Positions 4,705 to 40,225 of a stretch of 64,000 bases of DNA are shown here, piece by piece. The stretch is from Chloroherpetonaceae bacterium (lineage in GTDB: Bacteria; Bacteroidota; Chlorobiia; Chlorobiales; Thermochlorobacteraceae): contig JBDNCJ010000006.1 of assembly GCA_046719715.1 (NCBI GenBank), positions 8,492-72,491 of the forward strand. Reading direction: 5' to 3'. A model generated the notes under the pieces. That model did not search any database. It saw only the letters and a program-made list of their open reading frames with translations, and was not told the DNA's origin. The stretch's first letter is position 1, and each line of letters begins with the position of its first letter. The position numbers were made by a program, and so were the translations under genes.

Positions 4705-5553
4705 TTAAGAAAGTTCCGTTACCAAAATCGCCGTCGCAATATACGCAGTTGCTTCAATGACGCTGACGCCGACGTTGCGGTCTTTGGAAACTTCCTCGTC
4801 CAATTTGCCGCCGTAGGGCGCAAAGCCGCCGCCGAGCAAAACGCCCTGCACCAAAAATTGCCGAATCGGATAAAACGACAGCACAACCAACAACGATTTT
4901 CCAAAACCGATGAAACTGGTTTGATAGTCAATGAAGTCGCCGCGCAAGCCGCTTCCGACGGCAATGCCGATACCCACCATCACGCCTGCGTAGCTAATCG
5001 CCGCCGCAATGTTGCCGCCGATGAACTCTTGCGTGTCGTTGTAGTTCGTCAGCATCCGATACAAGCGTGCAATCGCAATGAGCGCAAGTTGCCCGACCAA
5101 AAAGAAAACCACGCTGGTCAGCACTGTTCCGCCTTTGGCATCGCCTGAAATCGTGCCCGCAATCACAAGCCCTGTGGCGATGAATCGTCCCGCCGCAACA
5201 ATCCCCACCGCGACATTTCGTTTTTCAATTTCTTCGAGATAATCCACCGCATGAAAGAGTTTGAACCCGAAAAGCGAAATGAACGCGAGAAAGAGCACGC
5301 CGCCCGTGCCGTAGGCTAAGGCAATGAGTCCATCTTGCACCATGTCGCCGCTTCCTTCGCCGCGCATAATAGCCGTTGTAATCAGCACCACGCCGAAAAC
5401 GTATCCTGCAATCGCAACACCCAACGCAGGATTATCTGCTTTCAATAGCGCATCGCTTAAATGTGTCTTCATCAACAGTTGATTGACGAGACGCGCAAAG
5501 ACGACCATCAAAACCATAATGATGGCGACGAAGAGAATCGTTTGAATCGGCAT
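4705..5553 (-). CDS. polytopic membrane protein with four DUF350-like repeats (YjfL-like)
   Basis: 282 aa and very hydrophobic. It has four repeats of the DUF350-type signature: ADNPALGVAIAGY, KRNVAVGIVAAGR, GGNIAAAISYAG, KDRNVGVSVIEA. Confidence 0.7.
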   Translation of the reverse strand: MPIQTILFVAIIMVLMVVFARLVNQLLMKTHLSDALLKADNPALGVAIAGYVFGVVLITTAIMRGEGSGDMVQDGLIALAYGTGGVLFLAFISLFGFKLFHAVDYLEEIEKRNVAVGIVAAGRFIATGLVIAGTISGDAKGGTVLTSVVFFLVGQLALIAIARLYRMLTNYNDTQEFIGGNIAAAISYAGVMVGIGIAVGSGLRGDFIDYQTSFIGFGKSLLVVLSFYPIRQFLVQGVLLGGGFAPYGGKLDEEVSKDRNVGVSVIEATAYIATAILVTELS

Positions 5554-5570
5554 TACTTTGAGTTTGTGGT

Positions 5571-5997
5571 TTAGTTGTTTGACTTACTTTCAGTTTGCCC
5601 TTGCTCCAAAAGCCAAGCGGCGAATTTTTCAAAATCGCTTAGTCTTGTCTCTATGATTTTTCTGACGACTTTAAGATTGAGCGATGTATAATCATGGACG
5701 GCAATGTTTCTGAATCCAACCATTTTTTGCAGTTGCTCACCTAAATTTTTATCGAGAAGCCCCGCATTTATCAGCGTTTCAAATGCTTCTCGACTGGTCT
5801 GGGGAACACCCAATCGCTTGACTTTGATTAGATGATTTGCCGCGTCAATCGCCGCTTCCGATGCGCGTTGCAAATTCAAAATCACGGAATCTTGCTTTGT
5901 AAAATTCGTCTCGAACTCGCTTTCATAGCCCACATATTCCTCTCGCACTCTTGCGGCGCACCGTTCAATGACGTTCGCTTTTCCGACTAAAATTTCA

Positions 5998-6014
<17 letters not shown>
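5571..6014 (-). CDS. hepT: HepT-type HEPN (DUF86) toxin of a type VII MNT/HEPN module
   Basis: Canonical Rx4HxY motif FRNIAVHDY. The ORF-track start (6149) lies inside mntA. I place the start at the in-frame GTG at 6014 (VEKFIDEIL..), which gives a 17-nt overlap with the mntA stop. Confidence 0.8.
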
Positions 6015-8827
<2,813 letters not shown>

Positions 8828-33684: not shown

Positions 33685-35934
33685 TTATGCTTGCAGGGCG
33701 GGCGACTTCGCCTCAACCAGCACGCCAACCGCTCCCGCAATCAGCCCGTTTGAAATCATCGGCGAAAAATGAAAATCGACTTGCGACTCGGCGACGACGA
33801 GCGATGTTGCAACCGATTCCCCCGATAGCACCCGACGGAACGCGCCAAGAAGTTGAGGATACTTGCCGTAGAGTTCATAAATGGATTTCCCTTTTGCAAG
33901 CGTTGACGCCGATTGATGTAGGTCGGTGGATTTTCCGAAGATGCCGGTGATGACTCCCGCATCGTCAAAGGTGATGAGGGAAATTGGCGCGGCGTCGAGC
34001 ATCGGCTCAATCTGCTGTTTGAACTCGCGATATTCGCTCTCGATGGTGGCACGCTTGGTAGCGTCAGTGAGCAAGGTGAGCACGCCGAGCGGATTTCCGA
34101 CCTCGTCGTCGAGGCGCGAAATGAACATCTCCGCGATTTTTTGTTCGCCGTCAGGCGTAAGATATTTGATTTTGCCGTCCCACCGTCCGACGCTTTGCAG
34201 CGACTCCATCGCGGCTTTGCGCTCTTTTGAGGAGGCATACTTGTATTTCATAATTTCGTCCGACTTCTTACCCAACGCCTCGCCCACAGACACGCCGTGA
34301 AACATCGCCGCCGCTTCATTCCAATATCGGATTTCACCAGAGACGCTCACCATCACGACGGCAAGATTAAGCGCGTTGAGAATCGCTGATTTTTCCGTCA
34401 GCATCCGCTCTTTTGCTTTTAACTCTTTTTGTGCCTCGTGGAGTTTGGCGGATTTTTCCTGAACACTGCTTTCTAAAATTTTCACGTCGCTTTCAAGACG
34501 CTCGACTTCTCGGTCGGCTTGCTCCCAATCGGCACGCAACTGCGAAATCGTGCTTTGGGCGTCGGCGAGTTCGGCAACGAGTTTTGCAATTTCAGTTTCA
34601 AGTTTTGCTTCTTTTTCGGGATTGCCTTTTGGCTGTGCCGCAAGGGTTTGAATGGTTTGATTTGCCTGTGAAAGTTCTTGTTCGAGCTTTTGTCGTTTGC
34701 TTGTTTCTTCGCCGAGTTTTGCGCGAAGGTCGGCGAGTTCTTTGGTGAAACGTTGAGCGAGCGACTGCGCCGATTCTTGCGCCGCTGTCAATTTTGATTC
34801 AAGGCTTCGCTTTTCTTCTTCGGCGTTTACCAGTTCGGCTTTTGCGGTTTCGATTTGTTCGGAAAATGCGCCGGCGTTGTTTACTTGCTTATTGAGCGCG
34901 GCGTCGTATTGCTTGAACATCGCTTCAAATTGAGCGAGTTGGTTGCCTGCATTCTCGACGGCTTCGCGAAGTTGATTGCCGGTGATGAGCGCGTCTTGAA
35001 GCTCGATGCGCAGTTGCATTTCCGCCTCTTGCGCTTTATCGACCTCGTTCATCAATTCTTTTTCGCGCTCTGCTTTTTCGGAGAGTTCGGCTTTGAGCCG
35101 CGTATTGGCTTGTCGCTCTTCTTCGTAGGCGATTGCCGAAAGCCGCGCTTTTTCTTCCGCTGTTTTCAAGGCATCGGTAAGTTCATTGAGGGTTTGGCGC
35201 GCCGCTTCAAGTTGCGATTCAAGATGTGAATTTATTGATGCGTTGCTTTGAAGCGATTGAAGTTGAGCACGAGACAGGTCGAGGGCGTTTTGGAGTTCGA
35301 AGTTGTTTGCATTCAGCGTGGCAATGGTATCGGTAAGCTCATCGATTTTTTTCTGCATATCGTCTATGACGACGGAGGAAGCGGCGTGGCTCGACACATC
35401 AGGCAAGGCGGGCTTGTGCGGTTCTTTTTCCGTCGTTGGCGCGGGAAGCGGTTCATCTTCAAGAAACGGCGACTGCAATCGCGCTAATTGTGCTCGTACC
35501 GCTTCGAGATTTCTCATGAAGTCTTCCGACGGTTGCGGGATTTGCGTCTGCGGGTTTGAGACGGGCTTCCGACTTAAAATTTCCCGAATTGCCGCCGTTA
35601 AAAATTTCAAATGCGACTTAAACACATAATCCGATGCGCCGCTTTTCAAGACCTCCGCAACGACGGCTTCATCGGTAATTTTTGAGAGCACAATGACGGG
35701 AATATGAATCGATTTTGATTTCAAGTGAGCGATGACGTCGCTCACAGTTTTGCGCTTTTGAAGAGCGTATTCGCAAAGCACCAAGTCAAAGGTTTGCTCT
35801 TCGAGTGCTTCTTCAAATTCTTCAAATGATTCTACATGCTCAATATCGGGGTGGAGTTCATCGCTTTTGAGCGTCAGCCAAGCCACTTGCGCGTCCAAGA
35901 GCGAGGTGTCAAAATGAAGAATGCGAATACTCAT
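33685..35934 (-). CDS. atypical receiver (Asp->Glu) - long coiled-coil - tandem PAS protein
   Basis: 749 aa. The N-terminal CheY-like fold has E where the phospho-acceptor D is expected (FDLVLCEYAL). Conserved S (VIVLSK) and K (DYVFKS) are retained. About 330 aa of heptad-rich sequence follow, then C-terminal PAS-like regions. No recognisable output domain. Confidence 0.7.
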   Translation of the reverse strand: MSIRILHFDTSLLDAQVAWLTLKSDELHPDIEHVESFEEFEEALEEQTFDLVLCEYALQKRKTVSDVIAHLKSKSIHIPVIVLSKITDEAVVAEVLKSGASDYVFKSHLKFLTAAIREILSRKPVSNPQTQIPQPSEDFMRNLEAVRAQLARLQSPFLEDEPLPAPTTEKEPHKPALPDVSSHAASSVVIDDMQKKIDELTDTIATLNANNFELQNALDLSRAQLQSLQSNASINSHLESQLEAARQTLNELTDALKTAEEKARLSAIAYEEERQANTRLKAELSEKAEREKELMNEVDKAQEAEMQLRIELQDALITGNQLREAVENAGNQLAQFEAMFKQYDAALNKQVNNAGAFSEQIETAKAELVNAEEEKRSLESKLTAAQESAQSLAQRFTKELADLRAKLGEETSKRQKLEQELSQANQTIQTLAAQPKGNPEKEAKLETEIAKLVAELADAQSTISQLRADWEQADREVERLESDVKILESSVQEKSAKLHEAQKELKAKERMLTEKSAILNALNLAVVMVSVSGEIRYWNEAAAMFHGVSVGEALGKKSDEIMKYKYASSKERKAAMESLQSVGRWDGKIKYLTPDGEQKIAEMFISRLDDEVGNPLGVLTLLTDATKRATIESEYREFKQQIEPMLDAAPISLITFDDAGVITGIFGKSTDLHQSASTLAKGKSIYELYGKYPQLLGAFRRVLSGESVATSLVVAESQVDFHFSPMISNGLIAGAVGVLVEAKSPALQA

Positions 35935-35955: not shown

Positions 35956-36897
35956 TTATTCAAAAAGTGCTTGAACGAATTTCCGTCGGTCGAAGAGTTG
36001 CAAGTCGTCAATTTTTTCGCCGACGCCGATATACTTGACGGGAATGTTCAGTTCGTTTGAAATGGCAATCACCACGCCGCCTTTGGCTGTGCCGTCGAGC
36101 TTGGTGAGAATCAGCCCTGTTACATCGACGGCTTTGGTAAATTCTTTGGCTTGATTGAGAGCATTTTGCCCTGTTGAGCCATCTAAGACGAGCAAAACTT
36201 CATTTGGCGCGTCGGGCAGTTTCTTTTTCATCACGCGCTTGATTTTGGCGAGTTCTTCCATCAAGTGCGTTTTGTTGTGCAAGCGTCCCGCCGTATCGAC
36301 CAAGACGACGTCGACGTCTTTTGCAATGGCGGAAGAAACAGCGTCAAAAACGACGGCGCTGGGGTCGACGCCCTGACCTTGCGAGACAATCGGCACACCG
36401 GCGCGCTCCGCCCAAATTTCCAACTGCTCTGTGGCGGCGGCGCGAAACGTATCGGCGGCGGCAATCAAGACCTTCTTCCCCGCGCTTTTGTAATTATACG
36501 CCATCTTTCCAATGCTCGTCGTTTTTCCAACACCATTGACGCCGACAATCATAATCACATAGGGCTTCTTGGGCAATGTTGCGTCAAAATCGACCACCGT
36601 TACCTCGCGTGCGTCGCGCATCAATTTTTGAATTTCATCGCGGAGCATCGCGTCTAACTCTTGCTCGCTGGTATAACGCTCTTTTTTAGCGCGCATCGAG
36701 ATGGATTCCACGATTTTAAGCGTCGTTGGCACGCCCACATCTGCCGAAATGAGAATTTGCTCCAACTCCTCCAAAAATTCATCATCTATTTTTGTTTTGC
36801 CCTTTACAAGACGAGAAATTTTTCCGAACAAATTTTCCCTCGTTTTTGCAAGACCTTCTTTCAGTCGCGAAAGTTTGAAGGCGTCAAAAAAGCCCAT
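35956..36897 (-). CDS. ftsY: signal recognition particle receptor FtsY
   Basis: GVNGVGKTTSIGK, DTAGRLHNK and LTKLDGTAKGG are present. Confidence 0.95.
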   Translation of the reverse strand: MGFFDAFKLSRLKEGLAKTRENLFGKISRLVKGKTKIDDEFLEELEQILISADVGVPTTLKIVESISMRAKKERYTSEQELDAMLRDEIQKLMRDAREVTVVDFDATLPKKPYVIMIVGVNGVGKTTSIGKMAYNYKSAGKKVLIAAADTFRAAATEQLEIWAERAGVPIVSQGQGVDPSAVVFDAVSSAIAKDVDVVLVDTAGRLHNKTHLMEELAKIKRVMKKKLPDAPNEVLLVLDGSTGQNALNQAKEFTKAVDVTGLILTKLDGTAKGGVVIAISNELNIPVKYIGVGEKIDDLQLFDRRKFVQALFE

Positions 36898-36908: not shown

Positions 36909-37652
36909 CTATGATTTTAAGGTTATTAAATTTTCGGCGAAGCCGACGGCGCGCGTGGCAAGTTCCAACGCTGTTTTTGCGTCAACTTCAAATTCAACGC
37001 TCTCGTAGCGCATCTCGACGGCAAAGTCGTTGAGTTTTGACGCATCGTTTAACTCTGCTTCAACTTCAATTGCGTTTGCCGCAAGCAATTTCAAAATCTC
37101 TCCCAAATCGTGCGTTCTCGGAAAATGAACGTTCTGATGCGCAAGCACGGCTTTGAGTGCCTTCTCTACCGCTTGTTGCGCATTGAAGCCAATTCCTTCC
37201 ATATCGTTTGGGCTGACTGCAAAGAGCGTTTCGGCTCGCTCTTTATCTTTCTTGGCTTTTTCCAAGAGGGTTTTCGCAATGTCCTGATTGGTTTTCATTT
37301 CCGCTGGGTTGTTCGCCATTCGCTTTGCTGACACATCTTCGTAAAGCACAACGCCTTCGTCTCTGATGTTTCGCCACAGTCCGACCGTTACGCCCTTCAT
37401 CGCCTCGCACTCCGATTGATGCTTGACCAACAGTTGAACCCGTGCGGGCAACTTCCCCACTGCCGATTTCAATTTCATTCGTTCCTGTTTCAAATCCACC
37501 TCGTCCGAAAGCATCACGAGCACATCGTAATCGCTTTCTTCGTCGTAATCGCCTCGCGCCCGCGAGCCAAACAGCACCACCTTCACAGGCGACGACACCC
37601 GACGCACTTCGCCGAGAATTTCTTGCTCAATTTCATCTATGACGGTTTTCAT
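36909..37652 (-). CDS. nucleotidyltransferase-HEPN fusion protein, copy A
   Basis: 247 aa. N-terminal minimal NTase (VVLFGSRARGDYDEESDYDVLVML) and a C-terminal classical HEPN-like four-helix region (..QQAVEKALKAVLAH..FPRTHDLGEILKLL..FAVEMRY). Confidence 0.8.
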   Translation of the reverse strand: MKTVIDEIEQEILGEVRRVSSPVKVVLFGSRARGDYDEESDYDVLVMLSDEVDLKQERMKLKSAVGKLPARVQLLVKHQSECEAMKGVTVGLWRNIRDEGVVLYEDVSAKRMANNPAEMKTNQDIAKTLLEKAKKDKERAETLFAVSPNDMEGIGFNAQQAVEKALKAVLAHQNVHFPRTHDLGEILKLLAANAIEVEAELNDASKLNDFAVEMRYESVEFEVDAKTALELATRAVGFAENLITLKS

Positions 37653-38357
37653 GGATTCACAGTCCTTTTGTTAGCAATGCTTCAGCGAAGGCGACGGCGC
37701 GTGTGGCAAGTTCCAACGCTGTTTTTGCGTCAACTTCAAATTCAACGCTCTCGTAGCGCATCTCGACGGCAAAGTCGTTGAGTTTTGACACATCGTTTAA
37801 CTCTGCTTCAACTTCAATTCCGTTTGCCGCAAGCAATTTCAAAATCTCTCCCAAATCGTGCGTTCTCGGAAAATGAACGTCGTGATGCGCAAGCACGGCT
37901 TTGAGTGCCTTCTCTACCGCTTGCTGGCAGTGAAATCCGATTGCTTCCATTTCATTCAAGTGCTCGTTCAGCACCAATGCCGATTTCAAATCTACTTTCG
38001 CTTTTTCCAAGAGGGTTCTCGCGACGTCTTGATTGGTTTTCATTTCCGCTGGGTTATTCGCCATTCGCTTTGCTGACACATCTTCGTAAAGCACAACGCC
38101 TTCGTCTCTGATGTTTCGCCACAGTCCGACCGTTACGCCCTTCATCGCCTCGCACTCCGATTGATGCTTGACCAACAGTTGAACCCGCGCGGGCAACTTC
38201 CCCACTGCCGATTTCAATTTCATTCGTTCTTGTTTCAAATCCACCTCGTCCGAAAGCACCACGAGCACATCGTAATCGCTTTCTTCGTCGTAATCGCCTC
38301 GCGCCCGTGAGCCAAACAGCACCACCTTCACAGGCGACGACACCCGACGCACTTCGC
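36944..38357. repeat. tandem direct duplication (~670 bp x2, period 748/745 bp)
   Basis: 36944-37612 and 37692-38357 are nearly identical nucleotide for nucleotide, with scattered single differences. The exception is one divergent patch, 37176-37254 versus 37924-37999. Confidence 0.9.
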
Positions 38358-38439
38358 GAAGTATTTCCACTTCAAATCCATCAAGCGCGATTTTGTGCTC
38401 AACTTGACTATCTTCAATTCCTTTGAAAGCCAAAGCCAT
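37657..38439 (-). CDS. nucleotidyltransferase-HEPN fusion protein, copy B
   Basis: Near-identical paralogue of copy A. The ORF runs to 38487, but that ATG overlaps the thiL ATG head-to-head, so the internal ATG at 38439 (MALAFKG..) is more plausible. Confidence 0.78.
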   Translation of the reverse strand: MALAFKGIEDSQVEHKIALDGFEVEILREVRRVSSPVKVVLFGSRARGDYDEESDYDVLVVLSDEVDLKQERMKLKSAVGKLPARVQLLVKHQSECEAMKGVTVGLWRNIRDEGVVLYEDVSAKRMANNPAEMKTNQDVARTLLEKAKVDLKSALVLNEHLNEMEAIGFHCQQAVEKALKAVLAHHDVHFPRTHDLGEILKLLAANGIEVEAELNDVSKLNDFAVEMRYESVEFEVDAKTALELATRAVAFAEALLTKGL

Positions 38440-38480
38440 CTTTTTCGTTATTTTGTCTGAATATAAAACTTCCTTGTTCA

Positions 38481-39686
38481 ATGTCATTTACACGCATCTC
38501 TGAAATCGGGGAATTTGCTTTGATTGACCGACTTGCAACCCTCATTCAACCAACCGAATCTCAACTTTCCACGCTCAAAAAAGGTATCGGCGACGACTGC
38601 GCCGTCATTGAACTTCCAAACGGCAAATTGCAAGTCATTTCCACCGATTTGCTCATTGAACAGATTCATTTTGATTTACTCACCACGCCGCTCGAGCACT
38701 TGGGCGCGAAAGCCATCAGCGTGAATGTTTCTGACATTTGCGCCATGAACGCCAAGCCGCTTTATGCGACGATGAGCATTGGACTTTCCAACAATGTTTC
38801 CGTCGAGATGATTGAGCAGATTTACGAAGGCGCGACGCGCGTTGCCAAGCAATACGGCATTGCGATTGTCGGCGGCGACACGTCGGCGAGCATCACGGGA
38901 TTGGTGATTTCGGTTACGATTGTCGGCGAAGTTGATGCCGATAAAATCACCTATCGAAGCGGCGCAAAGTCAGGCGACTTCATCTGCATTACGGGCGATG
39001 TCGGACGGTCGTTTGCGGGCTTGAAAGTGCTTATGCGCGAGCGTCAAACGATGCTTGATACCTTCGCGGAAAATCCCGATATGGATAAATCCACTTACAA
39101 AGCCGATTTGTCGGAATATCAAAAAGCGATTGAAAAACACCTGCTTCCCAAAGCGCGCATTGATGCGGTCAAGTTTTTTCATGAGGCGGGAATTGTTCCA
39201 ACCTCAATGATTGATGTTTCAGATGGCGTTGCGTCTGAACTCAAACACCTCTGCCGAAATTCACAAACGGGCGCGTTGATTGAAGAATCCAAGATCCCGA
39301 TTCTTTCCGAGACGCGCGAAGTTTCGGACGAATTCGAAGATGATGGCACCACCTACGCGCTTTTCGGTGGCGAAGACTACGAATTGCTTTTTACGATTTC
39401 GCCAAACGATTTAGAAAAACTCTCTGCGTTTAAAGACATTCACATCATCGGCAAAGTGCTCGACGCTTCCCATGGCGTTAAAATGCGCGACCTCTTCGGC
39501 ACCGATATCGACTTGCAAAACACTTCTGGCTTTCAACACTTCGCCGAAGAAGACGAGCACTTTTTTGAAGACGAAGACGAACACACTCACAACGGACACG
39601 ACCACGATGCACACGGTCGTAATGGGCATAATCATAACGGACATGATGACGCGGACGAAGACATTTGGGGCGAGCGCAAAAATTAA
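38481..39686 (+). CDS. thiL: thiamine-monophosphate kinase with His/Asp/Glu-rich C-terminal extension
   Basis: ThiL blocks IGDDCAVIE, DICAMNAKP and VGGDTS are present. About 50 extra C-terminal residues read EEDEHFFEDEDEHTHNGHDHDAHGRNGHNHNGHDDADED. Confidence 0.88.
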   Translation: MSFTRISEIGEFALIDRLATLIQPTESQLSTLKKGIGDDCAVIELPNGKLQVISTDLLIEQIHFDLLTTPLEHLGAKAISVNVSDICAMNAKPLYATMSIGLSNNVSVEMIEQIYEGATRVAKQYGIAIVGGDTSASITGLVISVTIVGEVDADKITYRSGAKSGDFICITGDVGRSFAGLKVLMRERQTMLDTFAENPDMDKSTYKADLSEYQKAIEKHLLPKARIDAVKFFHEAGIVPTSMIDVSDGVASELKHLCRNSQTGALIEESKIPILSETREVSDEFEDDGTTYALFGGEDYELLFTISPNDLEKLSAFKDIHIIGKVLDASHGVKMRDLFGTDIDLQNTSGFQHFAEEDEHFFEDEDEHTHNGHDHDAHGRNGHNHNGHDDADEDIWGERKN

Positions 39687-39706: not shown

Positions 39707-40225
39707 TTACTTGAAAATGTCTTCCAAGCGCAGTTCCACTCCTGTGGCTTTGTCAGTAATCAAGCCTTTGGTGAAAGTTTCTGTCGGTGAATCAGGATAA
39801 AAGATGTGAACGGTTTTCAGCGGCGGAAGGATAATCCAAGCGGATTTGACGCCAGCGGGAAAGTAGACATCGCGGATTTTTTCCACCAGCTCGTTGAGCG
39901 GCTGGGTCGGCGAAAGAATTTCAATCGTTGTAATCGGCGGAGTTTTCATTTTCGGCTCGTCGCGCTCCCAATCATCTTGCATTACAGGATAGATTGCCAA
40001 ATCGGGGTTTGCTTTCCCCGAACTCAATTCCAAACTCAGCTCACTGAACACATCATACTTTTCATCATATCGGCTTATCAGAGCGAATGATAATCGTGCT
40101 TCAATCTTTGAATGGTTTTTGCTTGGCATAGGTTTTCCACGTTCAAGTTCGTATTGAGAGAGCGTTTGTTGGGTTTCAAGTGCGGTGGTTTCCATCGTGC
40201 GATTTCGGTTTAGGTTATGCGCCAA
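39707..40225 (-). CDS. Uma2-family (DUF820) putative endonuclease
   Basis: YELERGKPMPSKNHSKIEARLSFAL.. and the D/E..EILSP pattern (TIEILSPTQ) are typical of the Uma2/PD-(D/E)xK-like family. Confidence 0.68.
   Translation of the reverse strand: MAHNLNRNRTMETTALETQQTLSQYELERGKPMPSKNHSKIEARLSFALISRYDEKYDVFSELSLELSSGKANPDLAIYPVMQDDWERDEPKMKTPPITTIEILSPTQPLNELVEKIRDVYFPAGVKSAWIILPPLKTVHIFYPDSPTETFTKGLITDKATGVELRLEDIFK

Follow-up and report, generated by a model that had tools for sequence, protein, structure and literature searches.

A conserved two-form hairpin segment within an otherwise homogenised tandem pair of fused nucleotidyltransferase-HEPN genes of Chloroherpetonaceae

We analysed a window of 64,000 nucleotides from a Chloroherpetonaceae bacterium (contig JBDNCJ010000006.1 of assembly GCA_046719715.1, positions 8,492 to 72,491) and focused on two tandem open reading frames (ORFs), A and B, that lie on the minus strand between ftsY and thiL. 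Each encodes a Pol-beta minimal nucleotidyltransferase (MNT) domain fused to a HEPN domain, and the two proteins are 87% identical (211/243, E 5e-154). Comparison with related genomes supports an old duplication whose copies are kept nearly identical by ongoing gene conversion, with the exception of a cassette of 23-24 codons that escapes homogenisation and occurs in two forms older than the lineage splits. The fused architecture has already been catalogued; the unusual part is the conserved two-form cassette, which we call the patch, inside an otherwise homogenised tandem pair. The locus is a clean case of concerted evolution with one segment escaping homogenisation. It is also a natural experiment in which two near-identical proteins are set apart by a 24-residue hairpin, mapped to the experimentally defined dimer interface of the Agrobacterium protein VBP.

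Mosaic structure and concerted evolution of the two copies

The repeat extends over 36933-37622 and 37681-38367 and is 92% identical overall. A DNA alignment and a codon-based comparison resolve the two copies into five segments, namely diverged N-termini, an NTase (nucleotidyltransferase) block, the patch, a HEPN block and diverged C-terminal tails (Table 1). An earlier note on this DNA, made from the sequence alone, had described a single block of about 670 bp with scattered differences and had missed the patch: what it saw as one block is in fact two homogenised blocks around a stretch of 69-72 nt in which only 31/69 nt (45%) are identical between A and B. The excess of differences in the patch relative to its flanks is highly significant (Fisher p = 5e-29). 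No additional copy of the A/B repeat was found in the window by blastn or tblastn.

The patch corresponds to the tip of the HEPN alpha1-alpha2 helical hairpin, and the AlphaFold2 models give a confident hairpin for both types. Eight residues are common to the two types (D136, A140, L143, M151, E152, I154, G155 and F156), with a spacing that would suit a helix-packing core; at the type-specific positions, type 1 is the more charged form and type 2 the more hydrophobic one. Two conceivable origins of the patch were rejected. A compensated frameshift is ruled out by the low nucleotide identity there, and targeted hypermutation of the diversity-generating retroelement kind, with silent donor cassettes, is ruled out as only two discrete conserved types are found and the blastn and tblastn comparisons showed no additional copy in the window.

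Close relatives were gathered from contigs encoding homologues and from a metagenome scan with FtsY. In the window the upstream copy carries patch type 2 and the downstream copy type 1. The other two-copy loci show type 1 upstream and type 2 downstream (L081, L085, L089 and L094) or type 1 in both copies (L088), so that, of the six two-copy loci (window included) at which both patches can be read, five are heterotypic. Single copies are of type 1 in L082, L083/84 and L086 and of type 2 in L087 and L093. The upstream copy of L092 is of type 2, and the contig ends within the downstream copy ahead of its patch. This contig, from a near-identical metagenome-assembled genome (MAG; GCA_046719425.1, 3770-3930), stops in the NTase block. 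Short-read assemblies typically break at repeats, and copy number may therefore be under-counted in other MAGs.

Across these loci the NTase and HEPN blocks group by genome: identity between copies is 92-100% within a genome for most pairs (84% for the L089 NTase block) and 73-78% between lineages. The patch groups by type: patches of one type from different lineages are 61-97% identical, patches of different type 42-49%. The two copies in the window differ by a synonymous divergence (dS) of only 0.04-0.10, compared to 0.8-1.3 between orthologues, while the dS of the patch between copies is saturated. Both patch types are common to lineages separated by a dS of about 0.9, and the duplication is therefore old. 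The earlier note had proposed a very recent duplication or ongoing gene conversion; the conversion is borne out and the recent duplication is not.

Each patch type is under purifying selection. Between A of the window and its L081 counterpart, the type 1 patch has accumulated 10 synonymous and 0 nonsynonymous changes, and the nonsynonymous divergence (dN) of the flanking blocks is 0.16-0.18. L088 is 93% identical to L094, which is of the 1+2 configuration, yet is itself 1+1, and its state is therefore the result of a recent conversion across the patch. The N-terminus and the C-terminal tail track gene position and not patch type. In L083 the single copy has the N-terminus and patch of the upstream copy of L085 and the tail of its downstream copy, and single-copy genes look like products of unequal crossover.

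The 96.7-97.1% identity of the two blocks would by itself suit a very recent duplication or an assembly artefact, an explanation that we regard as hardly credible. It is at odds with the saturated patch dS and with the sharing of both types between anciently separated lineages. An assembly artefact, which the earlier note had listed as a possible refutation, is excluded because the same tandem recurs in independent assemblies (L081, L085, L088, L089 and L094) and the B-to-A junction is also present in the independently assembled L092.

Fused MNT-HEPN genes also form an independent tandem pair in a Gemmatimonadaceae MAG (L002, 5836-7621), where the two copies are, judged by eye, roughly 55-60% identical. 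The NTase core of this pair is highly conserved and its alpha1-alpha2 tip more variable, without a sharp mosaic.

Family membership and inheritance at the thiL-ftsY site

A and B are the single-chain fused form of the Class II HEPN/MNT family (PF05168/PF01909; COG2250/COG1708). This class was defined by Yao in 2020 by the PF05168/PF01909 combination, the absence of RX4HXY, a conserved Tyr and a retained GSX10DXD, and is without biochemical study so far (PMC7641770). The assignment rests on these same features. The profile searches that the earlier note had proposed place both Pfam domains above their gathering thresholds, with 45.2 and 47.6 bits for the two proteins against PF01909 (NTP_transf_2, gathering score 21) and 75.6 and 77.1 bits against PF05168 (HEPN, gathering score 22); KNTase_C (PF07827) gives no match in either protein. 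The NTase motif stretch FGSRARGDYDEESDYDV contains G29 S30, ten residues, and D41 x D43; across 48 homologues these positions are invariant or nearly so. The HEPN motif region reads EMRYESVEFEVD, where R215/Y216 is near-invariant without a following His; as the earlier note had recognised, no Rx4-6H or RX4HXY motif is present in the sequence of the HEPN domains of A and B.

The HEPN residues A133, D136, F156, Q160, E163, K164, K167, H181, R215, Y216 and D224 are nearly invariant among distant fused homologues and 34 stand-alone HEPN relatives, and the conserved residues of A and B are identical to those of the stand-alone proteins. Both proteins retain the Class II set D136, Q160, E163, K164, K167, H181, R215 and Y216 (numbering of A), and the Arg-Tyr dyad is near-invariant among fused relatives and invariant in the 34 stand-alone ones. 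The AlphaFold2 model of A has a predicted local distance difference test score (pLDDT) of 93 and a predicted template modelling score (pTM) of 0.88, with HEPN helices at residues 122-146 (a1), 151-172 (a2), 183-192 (a3), 199-215 (a4) and 225-245 (a5). The model of B has a pLDDT of 89.7, with low confidence for the first ~20 residues. A sequence search of the PDB found no solved structure closely related to A or B. In the PDB, the NTase domain and the N-terminal helix are matched best at the sequence level by the 'Cmr1-MntA' fusion chain of a type III CRISPR complex (9z7q; E 2.9e-8, family profile). Against PADLOC, the NTase domain shows only weak to moderate, uninformative matches to the candidate family PDC-S09.

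The earlier note had taken the fusion to be unusual compared to modules made of separate proteins, a view that the literature and the family itself contradict. A PF05168 HEPN (HEPN-T) fused to MNT is already listed in Table 1 of Anantharaman 2013 (PMC3710099), and the class was named in 2020 in a survey that counted 9,583 module sequences. Our own searches yielded fused relatives by the hundreds. Our exhaustive search of 1.84 billion cluster representatives returned 4,771 relatives at E <= 1e-3, and the best 150 50%-cluster representatives are mostly 240-290 aa long and aligned over both domains. JGI names such relatives 'HEPN domain-containing protein/predicted nucleotidyltransferase'. At comparable distance, many relatives consist of split MNT and HEPN genes that overlap, with MNT first; they have the same conserved HEPN residues, the RY dyad among them, and such split pairs are also found on Bacillus plasmids. 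The locus differs from the rest of Class II in two respects: A and B occupy a single fixed chromosomal position upstream of ftsY within a bacterial subclade, in place of a patchy and mobile distribution, and they form a tandem pair in concerted evolution with a two-form hairpin cassette.

Class I HepT/MntA modules (SO_3165/3166, and 5571-6405 in the window) share with A and B the MNT fold, GSx10DxD and a HEPN-superfamily partner, but they are encoded by separate genes and have a DUF86 HEPN with RX4HXY. Class I membership of A and B is refuted: the MntA model NF047752 gives 39.2 and 37.8 bits against a cutoff of 60, and there is neither a DUF86/HepT match (PF01934, NF047751) nor an RX4HXY motif. 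One could still imagine an active fused class I type VII module, that is, a HEPN RNase neutralised by self-oligoAMPylation as in FhepTA of the Shewanella prophage CP4So (276 aa; PMC13000451). FhepTA is a single-chain MNT-linker-HEPN protein with the domain order and approximate size of A and B, its oligomeric state is central to its regulation, and the NTase domain studied here has a weak MntA-family match. The HEPN of FhepTA is, however, of the DUF86 type with RphixxxH and Tyr and the gene is on mobile elements, whereas A and B have a PF05168 HEPN without the motif and are chromosomal and syntenic. Their 38-39 bits against the MntA equivalog also compare poorly with the 153 and 99 bits of the true class I pair in the same window, and we consider this possibility very improbable.

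That pair, on the minus strand, is the canonical split type VII module for which the earlier note had taken it, with MntA at 5998-6405 (99 bits against 60) and HepT inside the ORF at 5571-6149 (153 bits against 60), where the motif FRNIAVHDY corresponds to RX4HXY. It adjoins a 547-aa ORF (6402-8045) that is pgi-like (glucose-6-phosphate isomerase), by analogy with PF00342 genes called in L083/L084. With this pair and the fused A and B, the class I (split) and class II (fused) types of MNT/HEPN system occur together in one genome.

Another explanation is that A and B are small-molecule nucleotidyltransferases of the KNTase/ANT kind, in which the HEPN domain serves only for substrate binding and the two hairpins reflect two substrate specificities, for example for two antibiotics or metabolites. 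KNTase/ANT(4'), ANT(3'')(9) and AAD(9) are dimeric enzymes that likewise consist of an N-terminal Pol-beta NTase and a C-terminal helical HEPN-like domain. The best full-length Foldseek matches of A and B are indeed ANT(3'')(9), ANT(4'), AAD(9), AadA and KNTase (E 2.5e-5 to 1e-3, template modelling (TM) score 0.38-0.53), and a fused HEPN is seen as a domesticated substrate-binding domain by Anantharaman 2013. The stable chromosomal site and the ability of either type to stand alone also fit this explanation.

The two-domain ANT/KNTase fold, an N-terminal NTase followed by a C-terminal helical bundle, is thus present in A and B as a likeness of fold only, and of the KNTase-like layout suggested in the earlier note this part holds. 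Membership does not: ANT(3'')-II gives 13.6 bits against 400 and ANT(9) 13.3 bits against 340, KNTase_C is missing, and identity to ANT structures is 9-17% with no significant sequence-family match. HalB, which is not a small-molecule enzyme, is also among the top Foldseek matches (TM 0.33-0.53 over ANT/KNTase-type matches and HalB together), and split MNT/HEPN relatives at a similar distance share the HEPN residues including the RY dyad. We find the small-molecule explanation unlikely. Membership in the Hailong HalB family was rejected as well (NF051895, 22.9 and 25.1 bits over 26 residues against 190), and no HalA-like gene was seen among the neighbours.

To place the pair in its genomic history, we compared the thiL-ftsY site across relatives. 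At 13 loci with FtsY at least 94% identical the site holds one or two copies of the module, in the order thiL (divergent), module, ftsY and a response regulator/PAS gene; the neighbours at all syntenic loci are thiL, ftsY, the response regulator/PAS protein, Uma2 and gap. At the sister locus L095 (FtsY 86%) thiL is directly next to ftsY without an insert, and at the loci with ~70% FtsY identity where thiL could be located the two genes are adjacent with an empty spacer. Over the metagenome contigs L095-L111 (FtsY identity 69-86%) thiL and ftsY are directly adjacent in divergent orientation at a distance of about 85-300 bp, which appears to be the ancestral empty site. The presence of the module at the 13 close loci and its absence from L095 and the ~70% loci show that it was inserted once into the thiL-ftsY spacer, in the ancestor of a narrow Chloroherpetonaceae subclade, and has been kept since.

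Between lineages, dS is 0.6-0.9 for ftsY, 0.55-0.98 for thiL and 0.8-1.3 for the module blocks, and these similar values indicate vertical co-inheritance. The dN/dS ratio is 0.13-0.27 for the module, 0.03-0.045 for ftsY and 0.08-0.10 for thiL; the module is clearly under purifying selection, looser than that on ftsY or thiL. The maintenance of near-clones beside essential genes, which the earlier note had left unexplained, is accounted for by the single insertion into the spacer, followed by vertical descent and concerted evolution. Further back in evolution the family is mobile, since a 55%-identical relative lies in an unrelated gene context and a 37%-identical relative is truncated by a transposase gene.

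The patch as a putative dimer interface

Agrobacterium VBP is a fused NT-HEPN protein whose HEPN is the dimerisation domain, the dimer being held by alpha1 and alpha2; each of the substitutions D173N, K184D and N186D abolishes dimerisation, the binding of AMPPNP and of VirD2/VirD4, and tumour formation (PMC3953389). Class I HEPN dimers likewise use alpha1/alpha2 (PMC11586414). We related VBP to A and B through a Sinorhizobium VBP-like protein, which matches the VBP structure PDB 4NQF (HEPN domain) at 2e-60 and aligns with the A/B family by hhalign with a probability of 98.8% (E 1.4e-16, 203 columns, both domains). In this alignment VBP D173, K184 and N186 map to positions 135, 146 and 150, all of them within the patch and all different between patch types (K/V, V/H and D/E).

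Because three residues required for the VBP dimer map inside it, the patch is most likely a dimer-interface specificity cassette, as judged from sequence homology. The rest of the two proteins is interchangeable, from which we infer that the patch has either itself or an external ligand as its partner. We considered and ruled out a type-specific partner surface in another part of the protein, because the NTase block and the rest of HEPN are homogenised between the copies and the two ends of the protein go with gene position, not with patch type. Each hairpin form is conserved over long divergence, which would mark it as the specificity-bearing part of the protein.

These elements can be combined into a tentative mechanism. 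HEPN-mediated dimers would form through the alpha1-alpha2 hairpin, and the hairpin cassette would set which subunits pair (1:1, 2:2 or 1:2). Dimerisation may then complete composite ATP sites to which one chain contributes its NTase and the other its HEPN, an arrangement seen in KNTase and suggested for VBP. The next step is drawn by analogy from class I MntA/HepT and FhepTA: the most likely target of nucleotidylation by the NTase would be the conserved Tyr that adjoins Arg215 in the HEPN of the partner, and the outcome would be a self-contained regulatory or toxin-antitoxin-like switch. The reading as a whole, in which A and B are old tandem Class II MNT-HEPN paralogues with converted flanks, a dimer-interface cassette and a Tyr nucleotidylation switch, is the one that we favour, at a little better than an even chance.

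Several points weigh against it. The interface assignment depends on a profile alignment of roughly 25% identity, where a shift of 1-2 residues is possible. Nucleotidylation of Tyr216 is pure analogy in a class whose modules are biochemically unstudied, and MNT-fused HEPN domains are usually catalytically inactive substrate-binding domains according to Anantharaman 2013 (PMC3710099). Genomes with a single copy of either type, together with one homotypic pair, indicate that the two-type state is not obligatory. The persistence of the patch could be due in part to strong heterology blocking conversion and not to selection for two types. Finally, stable synteny just upstream of ftsY is atypical of mobile toxin-antitoxin modules.

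Alternatively, A and B may form an obligate heterodimer in which each patch type supplies one of two complementary halves of an asymmetric enzyme. The heterotypic state of 5/6 readable two-copy loci would be in keeping with such an enzyme, and translational coupling is suggested by the spacing of the genes, which lie 4 nt apart or overlap. Against this, the single-copy genomes with only type 1 (L082, L083/84 and L086) or only type 2 (L087 and L093) have intact ORFs under purifying selection, and L088 is 1+1. We rate an obligate heterodimer as rather unlikely.

The homology to VBP over both domains (hhalign 98.8%) also raises the question of a non-catalytic adaptor that recruits protein or nucleoprotein cargo, given that recruitment as a dimer is the known role of VBP and that related fused genes reside in conjugative transfer clusters of the Sphingobium plasmid pUT1. 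A and B share with VBP the fusion of an N-terminal NT domain to a C-terminal HEPN domain, a VBP alpha1/alpha2 dimer interface that coincides with the patch, and the presence of paralogues in one genome (Agrobacterium has three vbp genes). VBP is, however, longer (about 315 aa) with a longer NTase insert, GSx19DxD in the VBP-like protein compared to the compact GSx10DxD here, and is only about 25% identical to A and B. Its genes are in conjugative transfer clusters and the protein binds VirD2/VirD4, whereas no relaxase, type IV coupling protein or type IV secretion system gene was found within about 4-6 kb at any syntenic locus. This absence of transfer genes nearby argues against A and B being VBP orthologues, and an adaptor role seems quite improbable. 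On pUT1, a conjugative plasmid of Sphingobium indicum (L175), a gene at 4935-5870 encodes an NT-HEPN fusion with 26% identity to ORF A; it is flanked by traA/traD and by the gene of the type IV coupling protein, a VBP-like context.

We further hypothesize, as a possible but doubtful extension of the favoured dimer-interface reading, that the hairpin cassette is a swappable dimer-specificity module whose two forms are held by selection despite continuous conversion of the flanks, and that the locus constitutes two insulated (or one asymmetric) single-chain nucleotidylation switches. If true, the function of the Class II HEPN/MNT family would become approachable for the first time, and the locus would be a natural case of paralogue insulation confined to 24 codons.

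Coordinates and neighbouring genes

The placement of A and B on the minus strand between ftsY and thiL, their Pfam domains and the identity of both flanking genes agree with the earlier note, with FtsY at 377 bits against a TIGR00064 cutoff of 261 and ThiL at 301 bits against a TIGR01379 cutoff of 184.

Table 1. Features of the A/B locus in window coordinates
Feature	Position	Strand	Description and basis
ORF A, downstream copy	36909..37652	(-)	247 aa; fused MNT + HEPN (PF05168); patch type 1
ORF B, upstream copy	37657..38439	(-)	260 aa from most likely start ATG 38439; fused MNT + HEPN; patch type 2
Homogenised block 1 of A (NTase, linker and start of a1)	37251..37613	(-)	351/363 nt identical to B partner (96.7%)
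Homogenised block 1 of B	37996..38358	(-)	Partner of A 37251-37613
Patch type 1 in A, residues 135-158	37179..37250	(-)	KDKERAETLFAVSPNDMEGIGFNA; C-terminal half of a1, loop, N-terminal half of a2
Patch type 2 in B	37927..37995	(-)	VDLKSALVLNEHLNEMEAIGFHC; loop one residue shorter than in A
Homogenised block 2 of A (rest of HEPN)	36939..37178	(-)	233/240 nt identical to B partner (97.1%)
Homogenised block 2 of B	37687..37926	(-)	Partner of A 36939-37178
NTase domain of A, residues 11-105	37338..37622	(-)	Pfam PF01909/PF18765
NTase domain of B, residues 25-119 (260-aa numbering)	38083..38367	(-)	Pfam; secondary structure
GSx10DxD of A, G29 S30 ... D41 x D43	37524..37568	(-)	Read from sequence
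GSx10DxD of B, G43 S44 ... D55 x D57	38269..38313	(-)	Read from sequence
HEPN domain of A, residues 122-245	36918..37289	(-)	PF05168 E 4.7e-21; AlphaFold2
HEPN domain of B, residues 136-258	37666..38034	(-)	PF05168 E 1.6e-21; AlphaFold2
Arg215-Tyr216 dyad of A (Class II HEPN 'RY'; candidate nucleotidylation site)	37005..37010	(-)	Residue conservation
Arg228-Tyr229 dyad of B	37753..37758	(-)	Sequence
Promoter-like site ATGACA-16-TATATT (sigma-70-like)	38460..38487	(-)	10/12; consensus match only; thiL/B divergent spacer, upstream of B start
ftsY	35956..36897	(-)	11 nt downstream of A, same strand
thiL	38481..39686	(+)	Divergent from B

The first ATG of ORF B would give a 276-aa version (37657-38487) that overlaps the start of thiL. 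We consider ATG 38439 (MALAFKG) the most likely start, because most homologues and called genes begin there and because a promoter-like site lies at 38487-38460; the L089 counterpart of B is, unlike most homologues, called from the longer start. Only 4 nt separate the stop of B from the start of A and 11 nt the stop of A from the start of ftsY, and B-A-ftsY is therefore probably a single transcription unit.

The C-terminus of ThiL (401 aa) is a tail rich in His, Asp and Glu (…EDEDEHTHNGHDHDAHGRNGHNHNGHDDADEDIWGERKN; ~39560-39686, plus strand) that is outside the TIGR01379 model, is alignable in part only among relatives and may be a metal-binding extension. Between thiL and gap is a 172-aa ORF (39707-40225, minus strand) without an NCBIfam match, whose counterparts by position in L081-L089 are called as Uma2-family (PF05685). 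This neighbour is kept in most syntenic loci, being absent from L093, duplicated in L089 and fragmented in L086 and L087. Downstream of ftsY, a 749-aa protein (33685-35934, minus strand) conserved at all syntenic loci combines an N-terminal receiver domain, a coiled coil of ~300 residues with weak SMC-like matches and a C-terminal PAS domain.

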